From an uncultured Eubacteriales bacterium (GTDB lineage: Bacteria; Bacillota; Clostridia; Christensenellales; CAG-138): DNA of 64,000 nt. How positions within the stretch are numbered: the stretch's first letter is position 1; the number at the start of each line of letters is the position of its first letter. The position numbers were made by a program, and so were the translations under genes. Of this stretch, positions 21,919 to 41,575 are shown in pieces. The notes beneath the pieces are model-generated. The model saw nothing but the letters and a program-made list of their open reading frames with translations. It had not been told where the DNA came from and searched no databases. The DNA is taken from the NCBI GenBank assembly GCA_900319345.1, contig ONNZ01000011.1:6411-70410 (forward strand), written 5' to 3'.

Positions 21919-22173
21919 TTATCCCTCGTGTATCTCCACGGACAGGTACTTGTTCCGCCGAGCCGCGTCCTTGAACACCCGGACGAAATGCTCCCCGCAG
22001 GGGGACGAGGCCCCGGTGAGGATGAGGCGAGTGGGCGCGCCCACGTCCGTCAGGCAGTCGTGAAGGGCGTCCAGATTCCGGCCGAAATAGGGCGGGAGCT
22101 GGAGCTCCTCCGAAAGATAGTCGTAGACCGCGTCAGGGGTGCCGAGCCGGGCAAAGTCGCACAAAACAAGCAT
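21919..22173 (-). CDS. barstar-family ribonuclease inhibitor
   Basis: The 84-aa ORF has YDYLSEELQLPPYFGRNLDALHDCL, the barstar signature. It lies 3 nt downstream of the barnase-like gene. Confidence 0.8.
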   Translation of the reverse strand: MLVLCDFARLGTPDAVYDYLSEELQLPPYFGRNLDALHDCLTDVGAPTRLILTGASSPCGEHFVRVFKDAARRNKYLSVEIHEG

Positions 22174-22176
22174 GGT

Positions 22177-22839
22177 TCATTCCTCCCCGTAGAGCAAGGT
22201 GAAGCTTTCGTAGTGGTCGTCGGTGTAGTAGATGAGGCCGTCGTTGGAATAGATGATGCGCTTAGCCCCCCGGGAGCGCTTCCCCACGGTGTCGATGTCG
22301 CACTCGTAGTAGCTGCGGCCCTTCTTTTGGGGCAGGAGCCTCTCGTAGTTGCCGAAATAGTCCCCGCCGATGGCCGCGCCGGTGCGGTAGTACTCCACCT
22401 CGCCTCCGTCCCAACCCAGCTTCTGGGCCTCCTTTTTGGTGATGAAGTGGGGCGGCAGCTCCCCGTAGAGGTGCAGGTACAGGGCCACCCGGTCCTTGTC
22501 GTCGTAGTCCGCCCCATACTCCACCGGGCTTTCCGTGGGGGCGGGGGTGGGCTTCGCCGTAGGCTTGGGCGTATCCGTGGGCGTGGGCTTTTCGGTGGGC
22601 TTGGGCGCGTCCGTGGGCTTGGGGGCGTCCGTGGCCCTGGGCTCCGCCGTGGGCGCGGGAGTCTCCCGCCGAGGGGCTTCCGTCAGCAACACCAAACTGC
22701 TGTCCACGGGCGCTTCCGTCGGCGCGGCGGTGGCCGGCATCTCCGTGATCTGAACGAACTCCGTCTGGGCGGGCCGGGGCGCGCAGCCCGCGGCCAGGAC
22801 CAGCAGCAATATGAGCCATAGGGACAAAACCTTCTTCAT
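22177..22839 (-). CDS. secreted lipoprotein ribonuclease, barnase family
   Basis: The start MKKVLSLWLILLLVLAAGC carries a lipobox, followed by a Pro/Thr-rich linker. The C-terminal domain reads YLHLYGELPPHFITKKEAQKLGW...YYECDI...RGAKRIIYSNDGLIYYTDDHYESF, which matches the barnase catalytic region. Confidence 0.8.
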   Translation of the reverse strand: MKKVLSLWLILLLVLAAGCAPRPAQTEFVQITEMPATAAPTEAPVDSSLVLLTEAPRRETPAPTAEPRATDAPKPTDAPKPTEKPTPTDTPKPTAKPTPAPTESPVEYGADYDDKDRVALYLHLYGELPPHFITKKEAQKLGWDGGEVEYYRTGAAIGGDYFGNYERLLPQKKGRSYYECDIDTVGKRSRGAKRIIYSNDGLIYYTDDHYESFTLLYGEE

Positions 22840-22929
22840 ATCCCCAGTATACACCCCGCCACCCCATTGTGCAACGGGCAGAATGGATGTATACTATGGA
22901 CAAGTATGAAACGTGGGGAGGGGACGACC

Positions 22930-28200: not shown

Positions 28201-28230
28201 CAGCCCCTCCCAAACGGAAGGGGCTGTTTT
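28201..28230. terminator. bidirectional terminator between the DHHW gene and the TIR/SLOG cluster
   Basis: The stem cagcccct/aggggctg is followed by tttt, and by an A-rich run on the other side. Confidence 0.6.
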
Positions 28231-28243
28231 CGTATTCCTTCGC

Positions 28244-29836
28244 TTACAGGCTGAAATCCGGGGCGTTGTCCCGCTGGTAGGAGCACCAGTTGCCGTTTTC
28301 GATGAGCTCCTCCCGGGCAAGGAGCAGCAGGAGCGATTCGTCCTGGCCGTAGATGGAGAGCCGATCCAGTATCTTCTGGTAGAAGGCGGCCATCTTCACA
28401 TGATCCTCCACGCCCCGGGACAGGGACAGCTTCCCGTAGTAGTTGGAGATGAAGAGGGTGGCGGCGGAGATGCTCCCCAGCACCAGCTTGATAAGGGTCC
28501 GATACTCCTCCGCCTCCGGGATGGCGCCGAGGCGGGGGAAGAGGCCGCCGTACAGCACCTCGAACACCAGGGCCAAAAGGTACAGCACGATGCTGATCAG
28601 CAGGGCCGCGCCCACCACCCGGCCGCTGATGCGGAGCTTGGTCTGGGCCTTCTTTTGGGCCTTCCGGTGGTAATTGAACTGATCCTCCGCCCAGCAGGCC
28701 CGGATGTCGTGGCTTTCCTTCGGCGCCTCGCCCACGCAGAGGACGGTGATGGCCATGGCGATCCAGGGGGTCTCCTCCTGCTGGCTCCAGGGCAGCAGGG
28801 TGATGGCCTCCCGCCGGACCCCGGCGTAGCGCAGAAAGCCTTGGGCCCGCAGGCTCTCGGCCAGCACCCGGTACTCCAGGTACCGTCGGTGGCAGCTGGA
28901 CCGATAGGCGAACCGGGTCAGCACCCACGCAAGGAGCAGCGAAAGGCCGCACACCAGGATGAGCCAGTGCAGGTTCGCCTCGTCGTACAGCAGGAATGCG
29001 GCGGTGATCAGGGTGCTGAGCACGGCCAGCAGGATGAGGACGCGCCGATACACCTTAGCGAACCGCAGGCTTAGCCGGTCCGCCTGCTGATACACGGCCT
29101 CGATCCGATCGAGGAGGGGGTCCTCCTCCTGGCGCTCCGGCAGCAGGGGATAGGCGTCGGCGGTATCGGTCTTGTCTGCCAAAGCGTTGAACTCCTCCGT
29201 CCGGTCCATGAGCGTCTGCCAGGGCTCCCCGTCCCCCAGCCGCCGCACAGCGCCCGGGACGTTCGCCGCCTGCTCAGTTCGGGGCGTGAAAAGATGGATC
29301 ACCGCCGTGGAGGAGAAGAGGGGGGCGCTGTGGACGGGATGGTAGCTGCCGTGGAGGGCGAACCCCACGGCCTCCGCGGTGCCGCAGCCGGTTTTGGTGC
29401 CGGGGCCCCCGTCCCACAGGGCCAGGAGCACGTGGCAGTGGGTGGCCACGTAGATGCCGGCCTGCCGGTAGTAGAAATCCCGGTCGGGGGCTTGGGGCAG
29501 GGCCTCCGTGGCCGGGGTCACGAAGCGCTGCTCCGCCTTGGATAAAAGGTCCCGAAAGCTATGGAGGGCCGCCCCGGCGAAGTCCTGCTCGTACTCCGCC
29601 AGGGGGAGGGGCAGGGCCGCGACCAGGGGGATGCCCAGGCTGAGGGCGGCTTCGGCGCAGAGCTGGTCGGCCCCCTCGGCCAGACTGTTGAGCATGACCA
29701 TGGGGCTGTGGGGATAGCTCTCCCGCAGCCCTTCCAGCTCTCGCTTCACCCCCGCCAAGAGGGCGGGCCTGTCCTCCGGCCGGATGGCCCGGTGGCCCGT
29801 GACCCCTACCGTCAGGGGGATGCGTTCAGTTTCCAT
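28244..29836 (-). CDS. SLOG (LOG/DprA-like Rossmann) domain fused to a multi-TM, tandem SLATT-like membrane module
   Basis: This is a 530-aa ORF. The N-terminus has VGVTGHR, NSLAEGADQLCAEAAL (DprA-like S.lA.G.D..a..aAL) and WDGGPGTKTGCGTAEAV (LOG-like PGGxGTxxE). The C-terminal half has about 5 hydrophobic helices (VLILLAVLSTLITAAFLLY, WLILVCGLSLLLAWVL, VVGAALLISIVLYLLALVF, LIKLVLGSISAATLFISNYY). Amphipathic helices flank these helices. Confidence 0.6.
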   Translation of the reverse strand: METERIPLTVGVTGHRAIRPEDRPALLAGVKRELEGLRESYPHSPMVMLNSLAEGADQLCAEAALSLGIPLVAALPLPLAEYEQDFAGAALHSFRDLLSKAEQRFVTPATEALPQAPDRDFYYRQAGIYVATHCHVLLALWDGGPGTKTGCGTAEAVGFALHGSYHPVHSAPLFSSTAVIHLFTPRTEQAANVPGAVRRLGDGEPWQTLMDRTEEFNALADKTDTADAYPLLPERQEEDPLLDRIEAVYQQADRLSLRFAKVYRRVLILLAVLSTLITAAFLLYDEANLHWLILVCGLSLLLAWVLTRFAYRSSCHRRYLEYRVLAESLRAQGFLRYAGVRREAITLLPWSQQEETPWIAMAITVLCVGEAPKESHDIRACWAEDQFNYHRKAQKKAQTKLRISGRVVGAALLISIVLYLLALVFEVLYGGLFPRLGAIPEAEEYRTLIKLVLGSISAATLFISNYYGKLSLSRGVEDHVKMAAFYQKILDRLSIYGQDESLLLLLAREELIENGNWCSYQRDNAPDFSL

Positions 29837-31553
29837 ACACCGCCATGCCGCTGCGCTCGGCCAGGGACGGGATGTTGCGGATGGCGTCTCGATCGTAGTC
29901 CTTGATCTCCTCGGACAGCTGGTCGTAGGGCACCAGGTAGGGGGAGGTCTTCTTCTCGGCGTTCCGTTCGCCCAGCTTCCAGCCCCGGCTCAGGCGCTCC
30001 TGCATCCAGGCCTCGTGCTCCAGCTCGGCCATGAACTCCACCAGCTCCGGCGGGAATTCCTTCACGGCGCCCTTCTTGCCCTTGGGCCCCAGGCGGTAGC
30101 CCACCTGCTCCAGCCGGTCGCAGATGTTCTGGGCCTGGCGCAGGTTGCTGTACTTCAAATCATCGGGCAGCTGGGAGAAATCGGGGTAATCCAAAGGCCG
30201 CTCCGGGTGATCCTGGAGCTGCTTCTCGCAGTAGCGGGCGTGGATGGCGATGGCCAGCAGCTCGATATCCTTCAGCAGCGGCCGGGCGTTCACCTTCTGA
30301 AGCTGGGGCTTGAAGGGCTCGAAACTGTCCAGACTCTCCGCGTCCACGTCGAAGCCCAGGGGGAAGATGGCCTTGAGGTCCAGGAGCCCTTGCAAGAGCT
30401 CGATCTTCTCCCTACAGAACTTCTCGGGCAGGTGGCCGTGCCTCGTCACGTAGGTGGCGGAAAGGTATCCGTTCTTGACGGACAGGTGCACCGTGTCCGC
30501 CAGGGTGAAGGTCCGGGTCAGGATGCCGTGAGCCTCCCGGTTCCACTCCTGGAGCTCGTCGCAGAGGATCAGCAAAAAGGCGATGGGGTTCTTCTGGGCG
30601 GCCATGGGCCCGAGGTTGAAGGGCTTCTTCTGCAGCACGTTCCGATAGTAGTTGTGAAGGAGGATGGCCGTGGCGCTGTCGAGGATGGGCCAATAGAACC
30701 GCTCCGGGTGGTCGCCGGACATCTGGATGGCGTAGCCGTACCACTTGAGGATGATCATGGCGCTGTAGTAGCCGTGATCGATGAAGCCGGAGGCGGCCAT
30801 GTCGTTCACGAACCGGTCCACGGCCTTCTTGGTCTCCATGAGATCCGTGCCCAGGGTCTGGTGCACGTGGTGGGCCAAGAGGTCGTTGGGGGTCAAGAGG
30901 TCGATATAGGAGCAGCTCTCATAGGCGTCGTAGTAGGCCCGGGTGAAGGGGCGCTTGGGCACCACCTCCCGGATGTGGTTCAGCTCCGAGAAGTTCTCGA
31001 ATTTGATCTGGGCCTTGACCCGGACCTCGTCCCCGTCCGCGTCCGCCACCATGCGGATGAACCGGTTGATCTGGTGGCCCACGATCTCCACCGGGTAGCC
31101 CACGTCGTGGAACAGGGCCGCCACGCCCCAGCGGAAGAAGAACTCCTCGTGGGGGGTCTGGTAGGCGTAGATGTAGTCCTTCTCGGGCACGGCGCTGTCG
31201 AAGGCCTTCCGGTAGGCCTCGTTCTCGGCGTAGATGCTGAGGCCCGTCAAAAACACGTTCACCGCGTGGATGAAGTGGTCCCGCTGCTTGTCGATGAGGG
31301 TGGCGGCGGTGGCCTCGTAGTGTCGCAGGATGTCCACGAGGTCGATGAACGGGTCGTTCTTGCCGGGCAGGGTGATCCGATAGCTGTCGAAGAAGGCCCG
31401 GTAGACGGCGAAAGCGGTCTCCGGGGTCTCGCCGGACAGGAAGGTCGACACGGCGCCCCGCAGGAAGGACTTGTAGCTGTGGCCCTCCTGCAGGTCGGCG
31501 GCAAGGCTCAGCTGATCGAAAAATCGGTCCACGAAGGGGGAAAGATTGCTCAT
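29826..31553 (-). CDS. HD-domain phosphohydrolase fused to a C-terminal RyR (ryanodine-receptor-type) domain
   Basis: Based on ORF 29826..31583. The start MSNLSPFVDRF follows AAAGGAG. HD motifs are RDHFIHAVNVF and AALFHDVGYP, with IDHGYYS later. The C-terminus reads LAIAIHARYCEK...FMAELEHEAWMQERLSRGWKLGERNAEKKTSPYLVPYDQLSEEIKDYDRDAIRNIP, which matches the RyR-domain pattern. It overlaps the next gene by 11 nt. Confidence 0.65.
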   Translation of the reverse strand: MSNLSPFVDRFFDQLSLAADLQEGHSYKSFLRGAVSTFLSGETPETAFAVYRAFFDSYRITLPGKNDPFIDLVDILRHYEATAATLIDKQRDHFIHAVNVFLTGLSIYAENEAYRKAFDSAVPEKDYIYAYQTPHEEFFFRWGVAALFHDVGYPVEIVGHQINRFIRMVADADGDEVRVKAQIKFENFSELNHIREVVPKRPFTRAYYDAYESCSYIDLLTPNDLLAHHVHQTLGTDLMETKKAVDRFVNDMAASGFIDHGYYSAMIILKWYGYAIQMSGDHPERFYWPILDSATAILLHNYYRNVLQKKPFNLGPMAAQKNPIAFLLILCDELQEWNREAHGILTRTFTLADTVHLSVKNGYLSATYVTRHGHLPEKFCREKIELLQGLLDLKAIFPLGFDVDAESLDSFEPFKPQLQKVNARPLLKDIELLAIAIHARYCEKQLQDHPERPLDYPDFSQLPDDLKYSNLRQAQNICDRLEQVGYRLGPKGKKGAVKEFPPELVEFMAELEHEAWMQERLSRGWKLGERNAEKKTSPYLVPYDQLSEEIKDYDRDAIRNIPSLAERSGMAVYGN

Positions 31554-31618
31554 GTTTCTGCTCCTTTCGTTGCTTAGATACAATTATATCCGTTTCCGCG
31601 CCCAAAGGGAAGGGGGGA

Positions 31619-34600
31619 TCATTGGATTTCCAGCCTAAAAACGTACCCCTCGCCCAGGGAGTCGGCGGCTTCGGCCATGTCGCTGGACAGGTACAGCTGT
31701 CTAAGATCGTTCGGCAGCTCCCGCAGGCAGCTTAGGTCCGTGAGCTGGGGGTTCCAGCGAAGGTCCAGCTGCTCCAGCATGGGATGGGCGGCCACGAAGG
31801 CCCGAAGCTGCTCGTTGGTGATGCCCGAGCGGTGGCAGGAGAGATCGTGCATCTCCTTGCCCATCACGTGATCCAGCCACCGATCCACCGGCACGTTGTT
31901 CATGTTCAGCCCCCAGTAGACGGGCACCGCCTCCAACACCCCGTAGTCCTCGTAGGTGAGCTTGTTGCTGTCCGTCACGTCCAACGCCACCCAAAAGCCC
32001 CAGCTGTTGTAATCCTCCGACGTGCAGTAGCTATAGTCCACCCGTTCGAGGGGCGAGAAGTCCCGCACGTTGGTGCCGGACAGGCTGATGCTGACCAGGC
32101 GGGGCAACTGCTCGATGCCCGCGATGCTGTCGATGGGCTCGTTTCGCAGGCTGACGTCCTCCAGGGAGGCCGTCCGCCACAGGGCGGAGAAGTCGGTGAT
32201 CTTGCGGCATTCCTCGATGGTGATCCGCCGAAGCTGGGGGAAATCCTCCACGCCGTCCAACGTGGTCAAATCCTGGCCGTACAGGTCCAGCTGCTCCAGG
32301 TTCGGCAGCAAAGCGGCCAGCTCGCCCATGTCCGTCACGGCCCCGGCGAGCAGGGGCAGCCGTTCGTCGGTCTCGTTGCTGTGCAGATACAGCTTCGGCG
32401 GGTCGGTGACCCAGTCCTCCTCGAACCACCAGGGGCCGCCGGCGTAGACGTATTCGCCCGCGAGGGACAGGCTCTTGATGTACCGCCGCATCGCCTCCGG
32501 CTGGGCCTTCAGCTCCTTGAAGGTCATCATGGGCAGCTGGAAGGCCACGTCCTCCAGGGCGGAGCAGGCGGCCAGGGGCGACAGGTCCGTCACGGGGCTG
32601 CCGTTCACGTCCAGGCGCCGGAGAGCGTACAGGTTCTGTATCCCCTGGAGGGAGGCGACGCCGGTGTACTGGAACCGCAGCTCCTCCAGACTCTGGATCG
32701 TGAAGGCGGCGGAGGCGTCGGCGAGGGCCGGGCACTGCCGGATGTCCAGGTTCTTGAGATCGCCCATGGCCTGGATGCCCTCCAGGGAGGCGAGCTCCAG
32801 CTGGGCGTAGACGGTCAGCTCCCGAAGCCCCGTCAGCTTTTCAAGGACGGTCAGGTCCGTCAGCGTCCCCGGCTCCACGGGTATGCGCTCCTCCTCCCCG
32901 TCGTAGCGAAGGTACAGGGCGGGCGGGTCCGTGGCCCAGTCCTCCTCCACCCAGGCGCCCTCGGGCACCACCGCGTCCCCGGCCAACGTCAGCCGGCCGA
33001 TGCGTCCGAGGAGGGCGCTGGGGAGGCTGTCGATCTCCGCAAGGCTCGCAAGCTCGATGTCAGGCTGGACGGGCTCCCATCCGCCCTCCGGGTAGACGAC
33101 CTGATACGCCTCCAGCAGGCCGCTGTCCACCATGGCCTGGGCCTGCTCCATAAGATGGGCCGGGATCTGCAGGCTCTTGCCCTTCAGGTGGTAGAGGGGC
33201 GACAGGTCCGTGACCCCGTCCACGTCCATAAGGGAGATGCTGTACCAGTCCTGCTTATAGTTTTCGAAGCAGGACAGGTCCTTGAGGTCGAAGATGGTGG
33301 TGAGGGTGATGTTCTTGGTCACCACGTTTCCGAAGTCAGGCAGGCTGAACAGCCCCTCCAAATGGATCTCGTAGATGCTCCGCCCCGTCAGAGCCGACCA
33401 GTCGTAGAGCCGGGGGCAGTTATAGATCTCCAGCTCCTGCATCCTGGGCATCCCCTCCAGTCCGGCAAGGGAGGCGAGGTAGGGGCAGTCGTCCAGGATC
33501 AGCCGTCGGGCGTCGGGCTGGTCCAGCCCCTCCAGGGAGCGGACGCAGTGGAGCAGCAGCTCGTTGGTCACATGGGGGAGCAGGGTCACGTCCAGCCCCT
33601 CGCTCTGGTTGCCCCGGCCGCCCCGGTTCCACAGCTCGAAGTCAGTGACCGTGGCGTTCTGGACATAGGGCAGGGCGCTGCCGTTCCGGTCCGTGATGTT
33701 GAGATAGCTGTATTTTTCGATGGCGGCCAGGCCCTCCCAGTTCGGCACCTCCGCGATGCCGAAGGAGAAGTATTCCTTGTTCTCGATATCCCAGAGGAAG
33801 TCCACGTCGTTGACGTCGACCCCATACAGCTGCAGGTCCCGGAGCTTGGGGAGCTTGGTCACCGGTGTCAAATCTCGCAAGGCGAAGCACTCGTGCATGG
33901 TCAGGGACTCGAGAGCCGTGCAGCCCGAGAGGGCGGAGATGTCCGTCAGGTTCCGCAGGTTCCAGGTGTTGATCTGCCGCAGCCTCACATGGTCCTCCAG
34001 CCCGTGGAAGGACCGCAGGGTCTCCATGTTGGAGAGGCTCAGCTGTTTCAGCGATCGGCAGCCCGCCAGGAAGGACAGGTCGCTGACAGGGCAGTCCTGC
34101 AAGTAGAGTTTGTCCAGATTGACGCAGGAGGAGAGGGCGGTCAGGTCCCTGAGCTGGAAGCAGCCGTCGATGTCCACACTGTCCAGCAGCACCTTGCTGT
34201 TGAGCCCCTGGAGGCTGGTGAGCCTCTCCATGCCCCGCAGATGCACTCTGCTCAGGGCGCTGGCGTTCGAAAGGCAGGTCAGGTCCAAAATGGGCACGTT
34301 GGCAAAGTGCACATGATCCAGCTTCCGGCAGTTTTTCAACCCGGACAGGTTGACGGTCCGCTGCTCCCCTTCCAGGCTCAGGTTCAAATCCCTCAGGCTG
34401 GCGGGGCCGAATCCGGACAGGTCCGCTTCGGCGGTCCCGTACAGGTTCATGAACACGGTGTTGAGCTGCGGGCACTCGTTGAGGGGGGAGAAGTCCAGCA
34501 CCGGGCCGTGGTAGTTGAACACCTGCAGTCGGCGGCCCTTCACCCCGGAGATGTCGTCGATGGCGCAGTCGAAGAGCTCCACGCAGTCCAGCTTCTGGAG

Positions 34601-35404
34601 GCCCGACAGGTCCGGCAGCGTGCCCTCCACCTGGACCAGCGTCAGCAGCATCAGGTTCTTCATATAGGGCAGGAAGCTCAGATCCCCCCAATCGTGGAGG
34701 GCGTACTCGTGGCCGTCCTCGGCACTGTACCAGTGGGCCCGGCCCTCCTCCACGCTGAAGCTTCGATTGGCGACCTGCTCCACGCCCACCCGGGAGATGC
34801 CCCGGTCCGCCAGGGTCCCGTCGTCCTCGCTGAAGGCGTAGAAGCCGTTCCCCACGATGATGAGCTCGTGGACCTGCTCCAGCTCCTGCAGGGTCAGGTC
34901 CACCTCCTTCGGGAACACGGGCTCCGGAGTGGGCGTGGCGGGGATCGGTGTGGGGGGCAGCGGCGGCGGGACTTGCCGCTTCTGAAACAGGACGATGCCG
35001 CCCACCAGGAGCAGCGCCACAGCCGCCAGGGACAGGATCAGGGGCAGGCGGTTCCTTCTATCGCCCATGGCCGCCGTGGCGATCCGGCCCGCCAGCTCCT
35101 CCGGCCCGTATTTCTGGCCGTCCAGGCCGTGCCGGGCCATGAGGGCGCGCTGGAGCTCCTCCGGGGGCGTGGACCCGTCCAGGTTCACCGGGATCACCAG
35201 CGCCCGGCCCGCGTTGAGCCGGAAGAATTGGTCCGCCTCCGGGCTGTCCGCCGACAGGCTTTCCGACAGGAACAGCATCAGGGCGTCCCCCTTCCGGGGG
35301 TCTGCGGCGCGCACGGTGACGCCCTTCTTCTTCAGGGCGTCCAGGATGGGCTTCACGCGGCTCTCGTCCGCGGGGGCGTAGAGGGGATAGATGGCTCGTT
35401 TCAT
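31619..35404 (-). CDS. TIR-like domain / single TM / large extracellular leucine-rich-repeat protein (1,261 aa)
   Basis: The N-terminus is a flavodoxin-like beta-alpha-beta pattern (AIYPLYAPADESRVKPILDALKKKGVTV...ALMLFLSESL...PEAD...ALVIPVNLDG). An Arg-rich stop-transfer (GDRRNR) precedes the TM helix LPLILSLAAVALLLVGGIVLF, then a Pro-rich linker. About 1,050 aa of ~22-24-aa LRRs follow (L..L..L.L..C..L.DLS.L). Confidence 0.65.
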   Translation of the reverse strand: MKRAIYPLYAPADESRVKPILDALKKKGVTVRAADPRKGDALMLFLSESLSADSPEADQFFRLNAGRALVIPVNLDGSTPPEELQRALMARHGLDGQKYGPEELAGRIATAAMGDRRNRLPLILSLAAVALLLVGGIVLFQKRQVPPPLPPTPIPATPTPEPVFPKEVDLTLQELEQVHELIIVGNGFYAFSEDDGTLADRGISRVGVEQVANRSFSVEEGRAHWYSAEDGHEYALHDWGDLSFLPYMKNLMLLTLVQVEGTLPDLSGLQKLDCVELFDCAIDDISGVKGRRLQVFNYHGPVLDFSPLNECPQLNTVFMNLYGTAEADLSGFGPASLRDLNLSLEGEQRTVNLSGLKNCRKLDHVHFANVPILDLTCLSNASALSRVHLRGMERLTSLQGLNSKVLLDSVDIDGCFQLRDLTALSSCVNLDKLYLQDCPVSDLSFLAGCRSLKQLSLSNMETLRSFHGLEDHVRLRQINTWNLRNLTDISALSGCTALESLTMHECFALRDLTPVTKLPKLRDLQLYGVDVNDVDFLWDIENKEYFSFGIAEVPNWEGLAAIEKYSYLNITDRNGSALPYVQNATVTDFELWNRGGRGNQSEGLDVTLLPHVTNELLLHCVRSLEGLDQPDARRLILDDCPYLASLAGLEGMPRMQELEIYNCPRLYDWSALTGRSIYEIHLEGLFSLPDFGNVVTKNITLTTIFDLKDLSCFENYKQDWYSISLMDVDGVTDLSPLYHLKGKSLQIPAHLMEQAQAMVDSGLLEAYQVVYPEGGWEPVQPDIELASLAEIDSLPSALLGRIGRLTLAGDAVVPEGAWVEEDWATDPPALYLRYDGEEERIPVEPGTLTDLTVLEKLTGLRELTVYAQLELASLEGIQAMGDLKNLDIRQCPALADASAAFTIQSLEELRFQYTGVASLQGIQNLYALRRLDVNGSPVTDLSPLAACSALEDVAFQLPMMTFKELKAQPEAMRRYIKSLSLAGEYVYAGGPWWFEEDWVTDPPKLYLHSNETDERLPLLAGAVTDMGELAALLPNLEQLDLYGQDLTTLDGVEDFPQLRRITIEECRKITDFSALWRTASLEDVSLRNEPIDSIAGIEQLPRLVSISLSGTNVRDFSPLERVDYSYCTSEDYNSWGFWVALDVTDSNKLTYEDYGVLEAVPVYWGLNMNNVPVDRWLDHVMGKEMHDLSCHRSGITNEQLRAFVAAHPMLEQLDLRWNPQLTDLSCLRELPNDLRQLYLSSDMAEAADSLGEGYVFRLEIQ

Positions 35405-35433
35405 GGGGGTTCCTTTCTATAGTCCGGTGTGTC

Positions 35434-38400
35434 TCAACCCACTTGCAGCTCGAACCCGTACCCCTCCCCCAGGGAGGCTTTGGCCTGGGCCATGTTGGGA
35501 GACATCCGGACCTTCCGCAGGTTTTCCAGATTCAGCAGGCAGCTCACGTCGGTCAGCTGCGGGTTCCAGGAGATCTGCACCTCCTCCAGCTCCGGATGGG
35601 CCTCCACGAAGGCTTTGAACTGTTCGTTGGTGAAGCCGCAGTCGTCGGCGTTGAGCCGCTTCACGGGCTTTCCCGCCAGATGATCCAGCCACAGCTTGGC
35701 GGGCACGTTGTGGAGCTCCAGCTGGGAGAAGCCGGGGATGCCCTCCAGGAAGGCGTAGGCGTCCTGGGGCAGGCTGTCGCTGTTCATCACGTTCAGGGCA
35801 AGCGACACGCCCGGCTCCCGGTCCTGGGTCATGGCATAGGTGAAGTCCACCTGACCCAGGGGCGAGAAGTCCCGGATGTTGGTCCCCGCCACCCGTACCT
35901 GGCGCAGGTGCTTGAGCCCCTCAATGCCCTCGAGAGAGGTGATCTTCGTGTTGCACACCTCCAGCATCTCCAGGTCGTAGAGGTTCTGCACCCCCTGGAG
36001 GGAGGCCACGGGGCAGCGCTCGAAGTTGATCTCCTTGAGCCCCTGGAGGGTGAAGGCGGCGGAAACGTCCGTCAGGTTCGGGCTGAACATCACCCTGAGC
36101 CGCTGCAGGTTCTCGAGAGCCTGGACGCCTTCGAGGCTGGTTAACGGCTGCCACCACAGGTTCAGATCCTCCAAGCCCGTCAGCACGCTGAGCTTGGAGA
36201 GGTCCGTGATCCGGGTCCCGGGCTTGTCGATCTTCTTCTGCTCGCCCGTGGCCCGATCCTCGACGAAGGCGGGCACGTTCTGCTGCCCCCAATCGGACCA
36301 GAAGTTCGTGGTATCGTCGTTCACCAGCTCATCGCCGATGATGGTGAGCCGCTTCACATGCTTCAACAGGGAGGGGGGCAGGGTCTCCAGCTCATCGAGG
36401 CTCAGCAGCTGTACCTGCATGTCGCTGGGGTCCCAGCCGCCGTCGGGATAGACGATCTCGTACTTCTTGAACCGCTTGTCCTCCACCAGCCCCTTGGCCT
36501 GCTCGCCCACCTGGGGCGGCACCTCCAGCTTGTTTCCATGGAGCCGGAACAGGGGGGCGAGGCTGGCGATCTGAGGCAGGTCCTCCAGACGGAAGCTGTA
36601 GCTTCGATCATCGCTGATCCCGTCAAGACAGCTTAGATCAGGCAGCACGTCCTCCGACAGCTTTTCCAATGTCAGCTCCTGGAAGGCAACGGCGCTGAAA
36701 TCGGGCAGCGTCAGCACCCGTTCGATCTCGAGCCGGTGGAAGGTCTTTCCTTCGATCCCCGACCAGTCCGAGAGACGGGGGCAGTTTTCCACGGTCAGGA
36801 TGCTGTCCGCCTTGCCGAAGCCGGTCAAATTTTCGATGCCGGCGAAGGAGGTGAAGTAGGGGCAGTCCTGGATCCAGAGCTTCGTACTGAAGTTCATCTC
36901 CCGGATGCCGGTGAGATCCCGGTTGAGGCAGTCGCACAGGTCCAGCTCCCCGGTCACGTTGGGCAGGGTGGAGAGGTCCACCAGACCCCCGTTGTAGATC
37001 ATCAGCTGGCGGATGGTTTTTCCCTCCAGATAGGGTGCCACCGCAGCGTAGTTGCCGCAGGTGTTCGCATGCACGTAGTTGAAGGTGTCGATGGCGTCGA
37101 TGCCCGAATAATCGCAGGGACCGGCGATGCAGAACTCCAGGACCACGTTCTTTTTGATCCGCAGCTCCTTCAAAAAGTCCAGACTGCCGATGTGGTTCGC
37201 CCCGAACAGAGCGATGCTTTGGAGCCGGGGGAGCCGGCCCAGCACGCTCACGTCCGTCAGGTACTCCAAGGGACCGTTTCCGGAGAGACGGAACTCGACG
37301 AGGCTGCTGCAGCCTTCCAATGGGGAGATGTCCCTGAGCAGAGGGGCGTCGTTGATGTTGACGATCTTCAGGTACCGATGATCCTCCAGTCCCTCCAGGG
37401 TCCTTAGCCCTTCCAGATCGTCGATCCGCAGCTCCTCCAGCAGGGGCGCCCCTTCGAGGCCAGTGAGGGTGCGCAGAGAATCCGTCCAACGCAGCTCCAG
37501 CTTCTTAAGCTTACCGGCGTTGGCGAGGCAGCTTAGATCGGTGAGCTGAGGGTAGCCGTCGACGAGCAGCTCCTGCAGGTTGGGACACTGGAGCAGGAAG
37601 GAGAAGTCCACCCCTTCCACACCAAAGCCGGACCCCAGGCCAAAACTGACCAGCTTGGGCGGATGGAAAGAGGAAAGGTCCACCCGGGGGGAGCCCACCA
37701 GGTCCAGATGGGCGGAGCGCAGATTCTGGCAATCCGTAAGGGGCGAGAAATCGCTGACGCCCGCGCCGTGATATTCGATGTTCTGGATGGTGCTTCCCCG
37801 GAGCCCTTCCAGATCGGAAAGGTCGCTGTAGCCCACCATCACGTCCCGCAGGTCCGTAAGCCCCGAAAGGTCCGGCAAAGTGGCGGTCACGTTGTACAGG
37901 GAGAGGAACCGCAAATTGGGCAGCAGAGCCAGCCAGCTGAGGTCGTCCAGCGTCACGTGGGGATACTCGTGACCGTCCTCCTTGCTGTAGAAGTGGACGC
38001 CGTCATCCATCCAGCCGCCGTAGGCAAAGTCCTCGTCGCGGCGCGGGTTCACGTACTTGCCCTTGGTGTTCTTCTCGTCAAAGGTATAGAAGTGGAACTC
38101 GTCGCCCATGAACACCACCTCGGCCACCTGCTCGAGATCCACATCGATGCCGTCCACCCGGGGCGGCTCCGTAGGGGCCGGCGTGGCCGTGGCGGGGACC
38201 TCCGTGGCGGGCGGCGTCGGCGGGGGCGGGGTCTGCCGCTGCCGGAACAGGAGGATGGCGCCTACGGCCAGGAACGCCGCCGACCCGATCAAGGTCAGGA
38301 TCAGGGGCAGGAGGCTCTTTTTATCGCCCTTGACCGCCTTGGCCACAAGGTCGCTGAGCTCCTCTGCGCTGTACTTGCGGCCGTCCAGGGTGTGGCGGGC

Positions 38401-38667
38401 CATGAGGGCGTTCTGCAGCTCCTCCGGGGGCGTGGACCCGTCCAGGTTCACCGGGATCACCAGTTCCCGGCCCGCGTTCAGCCGGAAGAAATCGTCCACG
38501 GCGGGGCTGTCCAACCCCAGGTTTTCCGACAGGAACAACACCAGGGCGTCCTTCTTGCCGGGCTTCGCGCTCCGCACCGTGACGCCCCTTTGCCCCAGGG
38601 CATCCAGGATGGGCTTCACCCGGCTCTCGTCCGCGGGGGCGTACAGGGGATAGATGGCTCGCTTCAT
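35434..38667 (-). CDS. TIR-like domain / single TM / extracellular leucine-rich-repeat protein (1,077 aa), paralog of 31619..35404
   Basis: Based on ORF 35434..38682. The start MKRAIYPLYAPADESRVKPILDAL follows AAAGGAAAG. The first ~100 aa are largely identical to the downstream paralog. The TM helix is LLPLILTLIGSAAFLAVGAILLF. The LRR ectodomain is divergent. Confidence 0.65.
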   Translation of the reverse strand: MKRAIYPLYAPADESRVKPILDALGQRGVTVRSAKPGKKDALVLFLSENLGLDSPAVDDFFRLNAGRELVIPVNLDGSTPPEELQNALMARHTLDGRKYSAEELSDLVAKAVKGDKKSLLPLILTLIGSAAFLAVGAILLFRQRQTPPPPTPPATEVPATATPAPTEPPRVDGIDVDLEQVAEVVFMGDEFHFYTFDEKNTKGKYVNPRRDEDFAYGGWMDDGVHFYSKEDGHEYPHVTLDDLSWLALLPNLRFLSLYNVTATLPDLSGLTDLRDVMVGYSDLSDLEGLRGSTIQNIEYHGAGVSDFSPLTDCQNLRSAHLDLVGSPRVDLSSFHPPKLVSFGLGSGFGVEGVDFSFLLQCPNLQELLVDGYPQLTDLSCLANAGKLKKLELRWTDSLRTLTGLEGAPLLEELRIDDLEGLRTLEGLEDHRYLKIVNINDAPLLRDISPLEGCSSLVEFRLSGNGPLEYLTDVSVLGRLPRLQSIALFGANHIGSLDFLKELRIKKNVVLEFCIAGPCDYSGIDAIDTFNYVHANTCGNYAAVAPYLEGKTIRQLMIYNGGLVDLSTLPNVTGELDLCDCLNRDLTGIREMNFSTKLWIQDCPYFTSFAGIENLTGFGKADSILTVENCPRLSDWSGIEGKTFHRLEIERVLTLPDFSAVAFQELTLEKLSEDVLPDLSCLDGISDDRSYSFRLEDLPQIASLAPLFRLHGNKLEVPPQVGEQAKGLVEDKRFKKYEIVYPDGGWDPSDMQVQLLSLDELETLPPSLLKHVKRLTIIGDELVNDDTTNFWSDWGQQNVPAFVEDRATGEQKKIDKPGTRITDLSKLSVLTGLEDLNLWWQPLTSLEGVQALENLQRLRVMFSPNLTDVSAAFTLQGLKEINFERCPVASLQGVQNLYDLEMLEVCNTKITSLEGIEGLKHLRQVRVAGTNIRDFSPLGQVDFTYAMTQDREPGVSLALNVMNSDSLPQDAYAFLEGIPGFSQLELHNVPAKLWLDHLAGKPVKRLNADDCGFTNEQFKAFVEAHPELEEVQISWNPQLTDVSCLLNLENLRKVRMSPNMAQAKASLGEGYGFELQVG

Positions 38668-38700
38668 AGTCTTTCCTTTCAAATACTGTATGGATGATGC

Positions 38701-39915
38701 TTACGGCACCAGCACCACGGTGAAATCACAGGTCTCCGGCCAAACGAGGGGCAGCATGTCCGCGCTGACGGTGACGGTCTTCAGCGACGGCAGATCCGCC
38801 AGGGGACTTAGGTCCTTCACGCCGCTGTGTTCAAGATGCAGCGTCTCCAGCCGGGGCAGGTCCGTGAGCCCCGTCAGGGTTTCCAACGACCTGTCACCGG
38901 ACAGGTACAGCTCCTTCAGCATCACGAGGCCGCTGAGGGCCCGGGCGCTGGACAGGGGCTGATACACCAGGGCCAGCTTCTCGAGATAGGCCATCTTCCC
39001 GATGATGGACAGATCCCGCACCTTGCCCTCCTGGGGCTTGCTGCCGTTCACCAGGCATTCCCCCTGGTGGGTGAAGGCCGTGTGTTCCAGATCCGGCGCG
39101 TACATGTTGCCCACGATGGCCAGTTCCGTCACCGCCGCCAGCTCGTTCAGCTTGATCTTCTCCGTGGCCCCGACGGTCCCCAGGATCACCCGGACGGCCT
39201 TCTCCTGATCCGTGTCGGGGAAGTCCACCTCGTCCATGCCCGGGGGGAAGGAGGGCGTGGGGGGCGGGGTGCTCGTGGCGTCAGGGGTGGCTGTAGGCGT
39301 GGGCGCGGGGGTGGCCGTGGCCGTGGCGGTGGGGGAGGGGGTCGGCGTCGAGCCCCCATAAATCAGCTGGTCCCACCAGCCGGCGTAGACCCCGTAGGCC
39401 CCCGCCAGGGCTGCCCCGAACAGGATCGCGGACAGCAGGAACCCGAACAGGCCCCGGGGAAGCTTCTCCCACCACTTGCGGTAGAAGGCCCCCTTGAGTT
39501 TCTTGTGCCGGGTGACCTGGTCCGCCCGGGCCTTGGCGTCCCCGGGGGTGGGGAGGGGAAGGCAGCTTTTTAATAAGGTCTCCCACTCGCTGCCGGGCTC
39601 AGGCCGACTGTCGTCCAGGGCGAAGTACAGCACGGGCTTTTTCAGGGCTACGGCGGTCTCGATCTCCGAACGGCAGTTGCTGGAGGCGAGGGCCGTCCTG
39701 GACAGGAAGAACAGGACCATGGCCGAGCAGCGCATGTGGGTCTCGATGTTCTTGGGCCAGTCGTTGCCCGCCGGGATGCCCTCGTCGTACCAGAGCCGGA
39801 CCTTTCGCTGGTGGAGCAGGGTGATGGTCTCCAGGACCTCCGGGGAATCCCGGTGAGAATAGCTGATGAACAGATAGGGTCGCTTGCCCTCGTAGGGGGT
39901 GAAGAAGGCGCTCAT
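38701..39915 (-). CDS. canonical TIR domain / single TM / Pro-Thr linker / short LRR ectodomain protein (404 aa)
   Basis: The N-terminus follows the TIR_2-type pattern, including the W/N..xE glutamate position. It reads RPYLFISYSHRDSPEVLETITLLHQRKVRLWYDEGIPAGNDWPKNIETHMRCSAMVLFFLSRTALASSNCRSEIETAVALKKPVLYFALDD. The TM helix is GLFGFLLSAILFGAALAGAYGVY. A (TPxP)n linker follows, then LRRs (LKELYLSGDRSLETLTGLTDLPRLETLHLEHSGVKDLSPLADLPSLKTV). Confidence 0.75.
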   Translation of the reverse strand: MSAFFTPYEGKRPYLFISYSHRDSPEVLETITLLHQRKVRLWYDEGIPAGNDWPKNIETHMRCSAMVLFFLSRTALASSNCRSEIETAVALKKPVLYFALDDSRPEPGSEWETLLKSCLPLPTPGDAKARADQVTRHKKLKGAFYRKWWEKLPRGLFGFLLSAILFGAALAGAYGVYAGWWDQLIYGGSTPTPSPTATATATPAPTPTATPDATSTPPPTPSFPPGMDEVDFPDTDQEKAVRVILGTVGATEKIKLNELAAVTELAIVGNMYAPDLEHTAFTHQGECLVNGSKPQEGKVRDLSIIGKMAYLEKLALVYQPLSSARALSGLVMLKELYLSGDRSLETLTGLTDLPRLETLHLEHSGVKDLSPLADLPSLKTVTVSADMLPLVWPETCDFTVVLVP

Positions 39916-40760
39916 GGCTGGTCACCTCCCGCCACGATCAGGGTGTAGCTGTCGTAGAGCTCCGGCTGCTCCGGGGCCCCCTGGGCCGCCGCCTCCGACA
40001 GGATCAGGGTGGTGAGGCGGGGGAGAAGGGCAAGCTCCTTTGGGTTTTCGGGCAGTTGGGACAGATACAGGCTCTCCAGCTCGGCCACCGCTTCCTCCGT
40101 GATGGGGCCGCCGCCGATGGCGAAGCGGACCGCCTCCCGCAAGGCTTCGTCCTGGAAGAGGACCGCGTCCTCCGGCGGGGCGACCTCCTCCTGGGGCGGC
40201 GGCGCGGGGGGATTCAGATACCGATACGCCCCGGCGCCTCCGGCCAGCAGCAGGGCCAGCACGATCAGCAGGACGCTGATCCGCCGGAGCCACAGCCGGT
40301 CGTAGACGGGCAGCGGGTCCCCCCGATAGAGTTGAGAGAAGTAGGGGCTGTGGAAGATGGCGCCCACCAGCTCCGAGGCGTTGGTCCCCGGGGTGACGGA
40401 GGAGAACTGGCCCGTGAGTCCCAGGGAAAGGCCCCCGTCCCCGCCGTCCGTGTTCAGCACCAGGATGGGCTGCCGGGCCTTCTGGCAGACCAGCAGCTGG
40501 TTCTTCAGCTCCATGTCCCGCCGGGCGCTGTCCGTGAGGAACAGCACCGTGAGCCCGGCCCCCAGCATGCGCTGGCTTCGAGCGTTCCCGCTGGTCCTGT
40601 CCCGGGAGTAGCCCACGCAGTACCACACCCGGCAGCCCCGGAGCAGCAGCTGCCGCAGCAGGGGCCGGACCTTGCGCTCGTCCCGGTCGGAGAAGCACAG
40701 GTGGATGTAGGGCTCCGCGCCCATATAGGGGGGATAGTAGGTTTCGGTTTTGCTGGCCAT
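39912..40760 (-). CDS. divergent TIR-like domain / single TM / short ectodomain protein (282 aa)
   Basis: The TIR-like part reads EPYIHLCFSDRDERKVRPLLRQLLLRGCRVWY...LTVLFLTDSARRDMELKNQLLVCQKARQPILVLNTD. The TM helix is RRISVLLIVLALLLAGGAGAY. An ~100-aa C-terminal segment has one or two LRR-like units. An ATGA overlap joins it to the next gene. Confidence 0.55.
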   Translation of the reverse strand: MASKTETYYPPYMGAEPYIHLCFSDRDERKVRPLLRQLLLRGCRVWYCVGYSRDRTSGNARSQRMLGAGLTVLFLTDSARRDMELKNQLLVCQKARQPILVLNTDGGDGGLSLGLTGQFSSVTPGTNASELVGAIFHSPYFSQLYRGDPLPVYDRLWLRRISVLLIVLALLLAGGAGAYRYLNPPAPPPQEEVAPPEDAVLFQDEALREAVRFAIGGGPITEEAVAELESLYLSQLPENPKELALLPRLTTLILSEAAAQGAPEQPELYDSYTLIVAGGDQP

Positions 40761-40813
40761 GGCCTGCCCCTTCCTTGAGGCATATTCCCCTCAAGATATA
40801 CTTCAACATATAC

Positions 40814-40842
40814 AGTATATCTTTTTTTCTCCCCCGTGGCAA
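40814..40842 (-). promoter_or_regulatory. sigma-70-like promoter of the TIR-LRR cluster
   Basis: On the minus strand the layout is TTGCCA, a 17-nt spacer, then TATACT. Downstream are a 7-bp hairpin (cttgagg...cctcaag) and the RBS AAGGAAGGGG before the ATG at 40760. Confidence 0.5.
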
Positions 40843-40963: not shown

Positions 40964-40976
40964 ACCTCTCGAACGT

Positions 40977-41048
<72 letters not shown>

Positions 41049-41176
41049 TAACAGCCGACGGCTGTTATCTGGTGCGGAGCCGAGCGCTGCCTGTGGCAGG
41101 AGCAGCGAGGCGAAGCACGGGCAAAACAAGGAGAAAACGTGCACGGTGCGCACGTTTCGATTATGTTTTGCCCCCG

Positions 41177-41575
41177 TCAGGGTTGTAGGTTCGAGCCCCT
41201 GTCCGCGGCTCTGTCTTTTTCAAGAAACAGCTTCATCCTCTCCAGGGCCTCCGGGCTGACGGTGTGCTCCATTTCGCGAGCGTCCCGTTCGGCGGCGGCA
41301 GGGTCCACGCCCATGGCGATCAGACAGGCTTTCAGGACGTGGTGTCGGTCCAGGGCCTGCAGGGCCGCTTCCCGCCCGGCGGTCGTCAGGCGGATCCGCT
41401 TGTCCCCGTCCATGGTCAGACACCCGCCCTCCCGCAGGCGCTTCATGGCCTTGCTTACGCTGGGCTTGGTCACATGGAGGGCTTTGGCTACGTCCAGGGA
41501 GCGCACGACGCCGTTCTGCTGCTCTATAACCAGGATCGTTTTCAAATACTCCTTGCCGCCTTTGTGCAGTTCCAT
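41177..41575 (-). CDS. DtxR/MntR-family metal-dependent transcriptional repressor (no SH3-like domain)
   Basis: The 132-aa ORF reads EYLKTILVIEQQNGVVRSLDVAKALHVTKPSVSKAMKRLREGG...RHHVLKACL...DAREMEHTVSPE. Confidence 0.85.
   Translation of the reverse strand: MELHKGGKEYLKTILVIEQQNGVVRSLDVAKALHVTKPSVSKAMKRLREGGCLTMDGDKRIRLTTAGREAALQALDRHHVLKACLIAMGVDPAAAERDAREMEHTVSPEALERMKLFLEKDRAADRGSNLQP
41179..41198 (+). repeat. 20-nt direct repeat of the tRNA-Asn variable/T-arm segment (AGGGTTGTAGGTTCGAGCCC)
   Basis: It is identical to 41018-41037 inside the tRNA. The copy does not fold into a T-arm. It lies 130 nt downstream of the tRNA 3' end and supplies the last 6 codons and part of the stop codon of the DtxR-family gene on the opposite strand. 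Confidence 0.85.

Follow-up and report, generated by a model that had tools for sequence, protein, structure and literature searches.

Type I Thoeris pairs the TIR enzyme ThsB with ThsA, a SIR2-SLOG protein, and the SLOG domain is the sensor of the signal, 3' cyclic ADP-ribose (3'cADPR); in the validated type VII Thoeris, a ThsB TIR is combined with a SLATT effector, ThsH, and the signal is canonical cADPR (bioRxiv 10.64898/2025.12.03.692087). SLOG domains of the YpsA clade have been linked to cADPR sensing, and TIR+SLATT neighborhoods have been described in phages of Firmicutes (PMC9503650). Phage proteins with RyR domains, known as RyDEP, bind 2'/3'cADPR with nanomolar affinity according to a 2026 preprint, and in one case the ribose-ribose bond is cleaved with the use of His75, Trp78, His100 and Asp117 (PMC13232231). 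Here we analyze a cluster of six genes, g1 to g6, in a 64,000-nucleotide stretch of DNA (contig ONNZ01000011.1; hereafter the window) from a high-GC Clostridia metagenome-assembled genome (MAG) obtained from rumen metagenomes. According to the list of open reading frames (ORFs) of the window, the cluster spans positions 28244-40760 and consists of six tightly packed ORFs, all on the minus strand. Genes g1-g4 encode proteins with TIR or TIR-like heads and a single transmembrane (TM) helix, followed in g2-g4 by leucine-rich repeats (LRRs); g5 encodes an HD-like domain with a RyR Repeat12 (R12) module, and g6 a predicted SLOG domain with SLATT-type TM modules. We propose, with confidence about evenly balanced between acceptance and doubt, that the six genes form one conserved, membrane-embedded TIR signaling system of the Thoeris kind with an outside-in, receptor-like input. 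To our knowledge, the characterized Thoeris systems and other bacterial TIR systems all sense infection inside the cell.

The signaling logic of the cluster is that of Thoeris, and arrangements of a TIR with a SLATT protein or of several TIRs with a SLOG protein have already been described. As expected of Thoeris, the g2 TIR is encoded in an operon with proteins that carry signal-sensing domains, namely the SLOG-SLATT protein g6 and the R12 protein g5, and the neighborhood is conserved. Type VII Thoeris resembles the cluster in that a TIR gene adjoins that of a SLATT membrane protein and in that the effector is predicted to oligomerize and breach the membrane in response to TIR-made cADPR, as we propose here. 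However, ThsH is described as having SLATT only, with ligand pockets between SLATT protomers, whereas g6 has a separate N-terminal SLOG domain and two SLATT units (the two were compared by description); in addition, our cluster has four TIR paralogues, each predicted to be anchored in the membrane and to bear an LRR ectodomain, and a gene for an HD-like-RyR protein is added. With type I Thoeris the cluster shares the pairing of a TIR enzyme with a SLOG-sensing effector, but SIR2 is missing, the SLOG domain is YpsA-like by fold, the output would pass through a membrane module and the sensor topology is different; PADLOC-DB v2 detects no ThsA and gives no more than weak ThsB matches for g2 (1.7e-5). 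Burroughs et al. 2015 reportedly predicted nucleotide-activated pore systems built from SLOG/SMODS and SLATT. The SLOG-SLATT and TIR-SLATT associations of that work and of PMC9503650 were predicted to be membrane effectors gated by ADP-ribose (ADPR) derivatives, and their descriptions, as far as these are searchable, contain neither membrane-anchored LRR-TIR sensors nor an HD-like-RyR partner. Type III Thoeris, like our cluster, combines several TIR paralogues and a SLOG effector in one operon; the summary in bioRxiv 10.64898/2025.12.03.692087, which allows a comparison by description only, mentions no TM-LRR TIRs or RyR protein and presents the signaling as uncharacterized.

The predicted sensors also invite comparison with eukaryotic receptors. 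In animal Toll-like receptors, one TM helix joins an LRR ectodomain to a cytoplasmic TIR, and the same parts are predicted here in inverted order; the long-LRR proteins with a short-LRR partner recall the LRR receptor/co-receptor pairs of plants. Unlike Toll-like receptors, the proteins of the cluster have an N-terminal TIR and a type II anchor, and the TIR is predicted to be an enzyme that feeds nucleotide sensors rather than a scaffold for adaptors. We treat the likeness to Toll-like receptors as one of analogy, not of orthology. Our literature search found no description of bacterial TIR-TM-LRR proteins, and the terms RyR, LRR and DUF4231 were not found in the supplements of the 2025 Thoeris survey. 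Nor did it find a description that combines membrane-anchored TIRs with extracellular repeats, a set of one active and three dead TIRs, and a host HD-like-RyR protein; on this basis we regard the cluster as a new variant of Thoeris-like signaling. The original prediction had held that a TIR/SLOG system with extracellular sensing was undescribed. This stands as far as our literature search goes, but the passage of a signal from TIR to SLOG or SLATT is known from Thoeris I, III and VII.

Among the four TIR-like proteins, g2 (38701-39915, minus strand, 404 amino acids (aa)) is the one with a catalytic-type TIR. Its residues 16-107 (39595-39870, minus strand) match Pfam TIR_2 with 57.7 bits (cut-off 28; 2e-15), and they are followed by a TM helix (aa 155-173), a proline/threonine (P/T)-rich linker and a short LRR ectodomain with a match to LRR_4; members of the g2 family are about 390-400 aa long and share this architecture. 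Glu84 (codon 39664-39666) sits in an S-x-N-C-x-S-E motif, is Glu in 35 of 35 g2 homologs, and aligns with the Glu of the WCxxE motif in the TIR of Cat1 (PDB 9mud), a CRISPR-associated TIR NADase to which, among proteins of solved structure, the g2 TIR is most closely related. The protein encoded upstream, g1 (39912-40760, minus strand, 282 aa), has no Pfam match. It comprises a TIR-like domain without the catalytic Glu (aa ~14-125), a TM helix (aa 161-179) and a short ectodomain of about 100 aa, and the N-terminal domains of the g1 and g2 types find each other in reciprocal phmmer searches (1e-5 to 1e-9). At the catalytic position the g1 family has A, R, S, N or Q and never E across 29 homologs (Q in g1 itself), and g1 is followed directly by g2 in 27 loci. 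By these alignments, g1 is a paralogue of g2, predicted to be non-catalytic and translationally coupled to it.

The two long proteins, g3 (35434-38667, minus strand, 1077 aa) and g4 (31619-35404, minus strand, 1261 aa), share one layout: a degenerate TIR-like head (aa 1-100), a TM helix (aa 122-140), a P/T linker and an LRR ectodomain of about 900 aa in g3 and about 1100 aa in g4, with matches to Pfam LRR_4 and LRR_EndoS. Their 120-residue heads have no significant Pfam match on their own sequence. When compared as families by hhalign, the g3/g4 heads match the g2 TIRs with a probability of 97% (E 5e-11), with a 15-residue deletion in the BB-loop region; 12 of the 19 members of the head family give sub-threshold matches to TIR_2, and no other family recurs. 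The catalytic position is never Glu in this family (D in g3, Q in g4). Profile comparison thus identifies the g3/g4 heads as homologous to TIR, in a truncated or degenerate form. The original prediction of four TIR-like proteins is borne out in that g2 is a genuine TIR_2 protein above the Pfam cut-off, but the catalytic Glu is present in g2 only. The heads of g3 and g4 are 74% identical and their ectodomains only 40%; g4 orthologs are found in most complete loci, whereas a g3 ortholog is missing from most related loci, and g3 is on this evidence a lineage-specific extra member of the predicted sensor set.

In each of g1-g4, exactly one hydrophobic helix follows the head and is itself followed by a linker rich in P, T and S. 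The ectodomains measure about 100 (g1), 220 (g2) and 900-1100 (g3/g4) residues, and those of g2, g3 and g4 match LRR models of the internalin or EndoS type. Lysine and arginine (K+R) are more numerous on the head side of the helix in 90 of 107 family members and show the reverse bias in four; g2 has five of these residues N-terminal to the helix and none C-terminal to it. Because of the single helix after the head, this charge bias and the linker with LRR ectodomain that comes after it, we predict that the TIR lies inside and the LRRs outside the membrane (N-in/C-out), in agreement with the original prediction that the LRRs face outward.

The putative membrane effector, g6 (28244-29836, minus strand, 530 aa), was modeled with AlphaFold2 (AF2) from 36 homologs with a pLDDT of 87.5 and a pTM of 0.86. 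In alignments its N-terminal domain (29177-29836, minus strand, aa 1-220), which has an alpha/beta, Rossmann-like fold in the model, shows the conserved loops GxTGHR, SLAEGAD, LALWDG and GCGT. By sequence, this domain is difficult to place: Pfam YAcAr is sub-threshold (E 0.036, 14.3 bits, cut-off 28.2), a PDB sequence search returned no match, and NCBIfam and PADLOC gave nothing significant. Since sequence profiles are inconclusive, the fold was settled by structure search only. The top Foldseek match in the PDB is B. subtilis YpsA (2nx2; target-normalized TM-score 0.65, probability 1.0), and further matches are DprA, ShosA and TM1055 (LOG-like), all from the SLOG superfamily; in the model, therefore, the N-terminal domain of g6 is a YpsA-like SLOG fold, predicted to be cytoplasmic. 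The remainder of the protein is helical and matches Pfam DUF4231/SLATT at aa 254-334, just above the cut-off (25.9 bits against 24.7); the NCBIfam matches, none of which reaches its cut-off, are SLATT_1 and SLATT_3 (aa 241-338) and SLATT_4 (aa 393-493). The membrane helices fall into two pairs (TM helices 259-277 and 292-310, then TM helix 407-425 with helix 442-467). The model and these matches support a SLOG domain fused to two SLATT-type modules of two TM helices each, and the fusion of a SLOG component to TM modules, which had been proposed from the sequence, is upheld by the YpsA/DprA/LOG match and by the DUF4231/SLATT match above cut-off.

The fifth protein, g5 (29826-31553, minus strand, 575 aa), has no TM helix and is accordingly a predicted cytoplasmic protein; its AF2 model has a pLDDT of 82. 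Its C-terminal part (29829-30275, minus strand, aa ~427-575) matches Pfam RyR with 53.6 bits (cut-off 27.4; 3e-14), a profile search of the PDB matched RyR repeats (E 6e-23), and Foldseek aligned it with the whole human RyR3 Repeat12 domain over ~200 columns (target-normalized TM-score 0.5-0.65, probability 1.0); a structure search of BFVD matched RyR-domain proteins of phages. In the model, the C-terminal ~150-200 residues are thus a complete two-repeat RyR Repeat12 fold. The N-terminal 340 residues are modeled as all-helical and contain an HD-like domain (30519-31301, minus strand, aa ~85-345) in which the motifs RDH..H (R91 D92 H93 H96), HD (H149 D150), DH (D259 H260), H(N) (H300 N301) and D (D332) are invariant in the alignments. 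Such a His/Asp pattern resembles that of bimetal HD phosphodiesterases, and the motifs and the all-helical model are compatible with an HD domain. Searches of the N-terminal domain against Pfam, NCBIfam, PADLOC and PDB sequence profiles gave no significant match, hhalign aligned it with canonical HD over 28 columns only, around AALFHDVGYP (probability 45%), and the Foldseek lists for g5 were filled by RyR matches, so that HD membership was not confirmed by structure search. Because neither profile nor structure searches confirmed HD, we use the term HD-like. Pfam HD is found in two distant relatives, and an HD label drawn from these was rejected since HD is there a separate C-terminal domain. 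Of the HD-RyR protein named in the original prediction, the RyR half is established by the Pfam score and the full R12 match, while HD holds at the level of motifs only.

The R12 module of g5 invites a direct comparison with RyDEP (PMC13232231). H513, W516 and D554 are invariant in g5 and all of its aligned relatives and, when mapped through the RyR alignment, occupy the positions of RyDEP H75, W78 and D117; g5 shares the R12 fold with RyDEP and, on this mapping, appears to retain the His, Trp and Asp through which RyDEP touches ribose and adenine in 3'cADPR/ADPR. It differs in being host-encoded, in carrying two repeats in one chain rather than forming a homodimer, in its fusion to a 340-aa HD-like domain, in having Ser for the phosphate-binding His, and in belonging to a TIR operon rather than being an anti-defense gene. 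Among distant relatives of the g5 N-terminal domain, P0339 (1366 aa) and P0345 (1271 aa) carry a canonical Pfam HD at the C-terminus in place of RyR, and P0326 (751 aa) has its RyR domain at the N-terminus, which indicates modular shuffling around the HD-like domain.

A search for the g6 family, which comprises at least 786 protein clusters, gave 519 confirmed matches in GTDB species-representative genomes; the best 80 of these all come from rumen or gut Clostridia. The ORFs of 80 fetched loci were searched with the domains of the window, and linkage was counted within 10 kb in the 46 loci that were well flanked. Dozens of species-level genomes contain the set again, with 45-93% identity: a g1-like and a g2-like gene, one to three long TIR-like-LRR genes, an HD-like(-RyR) gene and SLOG-SLATT. 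Gene order is shuffled between loci, with the HD-like gene first, last or on the opposite strand and SLOG-SLATT in some cases first. TIR genes lie within 10 kb of SLOG-SLATT in 38 of the 46 loci and an HD-like gene in 35; both are present in 31 and neither in four. The co-occurrence of TIR-LRR, HD-RyR and SLOG-TM genes in other genomes, which the original prediction had named as a check, is thus observed. A more distant relative on an IMG/VR contig, 38% identical, again occurs with a RyR/HD-like gene, SLOG-SLATT and TIR.

Where TIR-LRR genes are absent, other TIR proteins (TIR-TM-WD40, TIR-TM, TIR-TPR/Sel1) are encoded beside SLOG-SLATT. In three loci, proteins of ~912 aa with an N-terminal TIR_2, one TM helix and WD40/beta-propeller repeats adjoin SLOG-SLATT (L032 11647-14391, L062 5482-8220 and L063 5627-8395, all on the minus strand), and because they replace the TIR-LRR set, the SLOG-SLATT module can apparently use another predicted surface sensor. 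In another locus (L037 1655-9982), the region upstream of SLOG-SLATT encodes two TIR proteins, one of the TIR-TPR/Sel1 type (778 aa) and one of the TIR-TM type (545 aa), together with a calcineurin-like metallophosphatase, a secreted protein of 390 aa and a protein of 693 aa without annotation. The MAG RUG14730 has two SLOG-SLATT loci (L039 and L058), one with the full TIR-LRR/HD-like set and the other with no partner detectable within 10 kb.

The family of the g5 N-terminal domain is larger still, with at least 1036 clusters at 50% identity, and several of its members are fused directly to TIR_2, at either end. In one case (L085 1059-5425), the gene for a 740-aa HD-like-RyR-TIR fusion precedes that for a TIR-LRR_5 protein of 715 aa, which has no predicted TM helix and would be soluble, and SLOG-SLATT is absent; the pair resembles a cytoplasmic version of the membrane system. 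In the complete genome GCA_942492735.1 (a 4.2-Mb chromosome), a TIR_2 protein (345 aa) and an HD-like-RyR protein (587 aa) form a two-gene arrangement without SLOG-SLATT and without LRR (L087 8943-11764), which suggests that a TIR can work with HD-like-RyR and no other partner. Co-occurrence, shuffled gene order, exchange of sensors and direct fusions are classic signatures of functional association, and we therefore infer a partnership of the TIRs with both downstream proteins. The most conserved component is g5 and the least conserved are the ectodomains, with the TIR heads more conserved than their own ectodomains; the number of sensors per locus varies from one to three. Since the ectodomains diverge faster and g3 is mostly lineage-specific, the predicted sensors appear to vary in number and sequence around a stable cytoplasmic core.

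These results allow a mechanism to be proposed. A surface ligand, for which phage particles or another envelope-directed attack are candidates, would cluster the long-LRR proteins g3 and g4 with the short g1/g2 pair in the manner of a receptor and co-receptor. The TIR heads would be brought together and the NADase/cyclase of g2 switched on, which would then convert NAD+ into a nucleotide messenger, probably a cADPR isomer. Binding of the messenger to the SLOG domain of g6 would cause the SLATT modules to permeabilize or depolarize the membrane, and the same messenger would bind the R12 pocket of g5, whose HD-like hydrolase may act either as a second effector or as a signal-clearing enzyme. The existence of a two-gene operon of TIR and HD-like-RyR favors the former, and the intact His/Asp dyad with its phosphodiesterase-like motif pattern favors the latter. 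The most likely role of such a system is defense or surface-triggered regulated cell death.

Several observations weigh against this reading. Eight of the 46 well-flanked loci have no TIR within 10 kb. The topology of g1-g4 is derived from the positive-inside rule only, Pfam HD matches neither g5 nor the N-terminal domain of its family, and the His that contacts phosphate in RyDEP and RyR (H100) is Ser in g5 (KTSPYLVPY against KKHPCLVPY). Where a TIR is fused to HD-like-RyR, it could serve as an effector that depletes NAD instead of making a signal. The flanking genes are of the housekeeping kind (tRNA-Asn, a DtxR-family repressor, MBOAT/DHHW, Alr, aconitase, GidA/B); such neighbors were seen in all four contexts examined, where they differ between lineages and where no integrase, phage gene or recognized defense gene is adjacent. 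PADLOC, which the original prediction had suggested running to see whether the cluster is already classified, assigns no system to it, IMG/VR viral contigs give just three weak matches, unlike most Thoeris loci, and all carriers are uncultured MAGs. It is mainly because of the housekeeping context, the lack of defense or phage genes and the lack of a PADLOC system that we do not take a defense role for granted. The same hardware and signal flow could instead be physiological, sensing something in the rumen environment (for instance the surface of a plant or host, neighboring cells or the state of the cell wall) and tuning membrane permeability, dormancy or nucleotide pools. We rate this as rather unlikely while giving it real weight: the locus lies amid housekeeping genes in every context examined, many Clostridia of the rumen and gut stably carry it with intact genes, viral contigs hardly ever contain it, PADLOC assigns no system to it, and LRRs of the internalin type are classic surface-binding modules. 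However, catalytic TIR, SLOG, SLATT and RyR R12 have so far been characterized only in conflict systems, the sensors change in sequence more quickly than the other parts and differ in copy number between loci, and neither gene order nor chromosomal position is conserved, a pattern typical of accessory defense loci.

Three further explanations change the wiring of the cluster rather than its purpose. The TIRs might be NAD+-depleting effectors or passive scaffolds for oligomerization, with SLOG-SLATT and HD-like-RyR responding to some other nucleotide or acting upstream. That all TIR-like heads but that of g2 are predicted to be catalytically inactive fits such an arrangement, and the fusion of TIR to HD-like-RyR resembles fusions of a sensor with a TIR effector such as TIR-STING, TIR-SAVED and Cat1, the last being nearest to the g2 TIR among solved proteins; yet no CD-NTase, SMODS or cyclase was seen in the operon or among its Pfam-annotated neighbors, and both partner sensor domains come from families known to bind TIR-made cADPR isomers, so that we find this explanation quite unlikely. 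If the topology were reversed or export did not take place, the LRRs would be cytoplasmic and would sense phage within the cell as in ordinary Thoeris, being merely tethered to the membrane. The soluble TIR-LRR_5 protein that adjoins the HD-like-RyR-TIR fusion in L085, having no TM helix, indicates that intracellular LRR sensing exists in this module family, but in the membrane proteins the K+R bias is N-in in 90 of 107 and C-in in four, a signal peptide is missing and a single hydrophobic anchor leads into P/T-rich linkers typical of wall-spanning segments, and the internalin and EndoS LRR types are those of secreted Gram-positive proteins; cytoplasmic LRRs are very unlikely in this light. 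Least credible to us, and highly improbable, is that two unrelated units happen to be neighbors, with LRR surface adhesins that carry a cytoplasmic anchor domain beside a separate HD-like-RyR/SLOG-SLATT module. Loci with HD-like and SLOG-SLATT genes and no TIR-LRR genes nearby do exist (L029, L046, L073, L077 and L082), but TIR and HD-like genes accompany SLOG-SLATT in 31 loci in spite of shuffled order, the genes are translationally coupled or tightly packed behind one promoter, other TIR-TM proteins replace the missing LRR proteins, and members of the g5 family are fused directly to TIR.

If the outside-in reading of the cluster is correct, bacteria can start nucleotide-based immune signaling before foreign DNA enters or without its entry, and the cluster would provide a prokaryotic analogue of the Toll-like receptor architecture. 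A bolder claim, which we advance tentatively and consider somewhat more likely to fail than to hold, is that this is the first prokaryotic TIR enzyme to be switched on from outside the cell: LRRs on the surface of Gram-positive rumen bacteria would recognize an extracellular ligand, for example a phage during adsorption, and pass the signal through a single TM helix to a hetero-oligomer of one active and several dead TIRs, as a functional counterpart of Toll-like receptors, and a messenger of the cADPR type would be read by a host RyR R12 domain and by SLOG-SLATT. Were this true, the link between cADPR and RyR in animal calcium signaling would be an inheritance from bacterial immune signaling. 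The handling of 2'/3'cADPR by RyR Repeat12 was previously shown only in anti-defense proteins of phages; the operon, with its host-encoded R12 domain next to a TIR enzyme, thus makes it possible to ask directly whether the RyR domain is an ancestral cADPR receptor. The family, unannotated and present in hundreds of species-level genomes with more than 1000 clusters of the g5 N-terminal domain, may influence how phages and their hosts, or cells with one another, interact in the rumen microbiome.

The layout of the locus agrees for the most part with the original prediction. Its six co-directional genes are recovered as six minus-strand ORFs, and an independent annotation of this metagenome scaffold gives the same products. 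Start codons were chosen for the presence of a Shine-Dalgarno sequence, g3 being counted from an ATG with a ribosome-binding site and g5 from an ATG with GAAAGGAG. Both of the overlaps that had been noted are present, namely 4 nucleotides (ATGA) between the stop of g1 and the start of g2 and 11 nucleotides between g5 and g6. The gaps had been given as 29-33 nucleotides, which is correct for g2-g3 (33) and g3-g4 (29) but not for g4-g5, where the gap is 65 nucleotides and shrinks to 35 only with an alternative TTG start at 31583. The promoter proposed upstream of g1 (40814-40842, minus strand) was also found, as a predicted sigma-70-like TTGCCA-17-TATACT with 10 of 12 consensus matches. At the other end, where the g6 and DHHW genes converge, a hairpin rich in G+C (28201-28230), a candidate bidirectional terminator, folds on both strands as had been proposed (-29.3 kcal/mol on the minus, operon strand and -23.2 kcal/mol on the plus strand), but it has a good T-run on the plus strand only, and a rule-based terminator scan of the window did not list it.

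The promoter of the operon is directly preceded by a tRNA-Asn(GTT) gene (40976-41049, plus strand). The T-arm of this tRNA, AGGGTTGTAGGTTCGAGCCC (41018-41037), is repeated as an exact 20-nucleotide copy 161 nucleotides downstream, at 41179-41198, within the 3' end of the gene for the DtxR/MntR-family repressor (41177-41575, minus strand), and may be the remnant of an old att site. The tRNA lies between this repeat and the six genes, which are therefore not bracketed by it, and insertion of the cluster at tRNA-Asn was not established. Carriage as prophage or plasmid cargo was rejected, given the three weak IMG/VR matches and the lack of mobile-element genes nearby. In a metagenome scan with the neighboring DHHW gene, close relatives (L097 and L104) were seen to carry the cluster at this very site; it is not downstream of DHHW in one relative at greater distance (L100), which has in any case lost synteny there. 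Elsewhere in the window, between ApbE and ArgS, an unannotated ORF of 225 aa (22177-22854, minus strand) is directly followed by an adjoining barstar-family gene (Pfam Barstar; 21919-22173, minus strand), and the two could be a barnase-like toxin/immunity pair.

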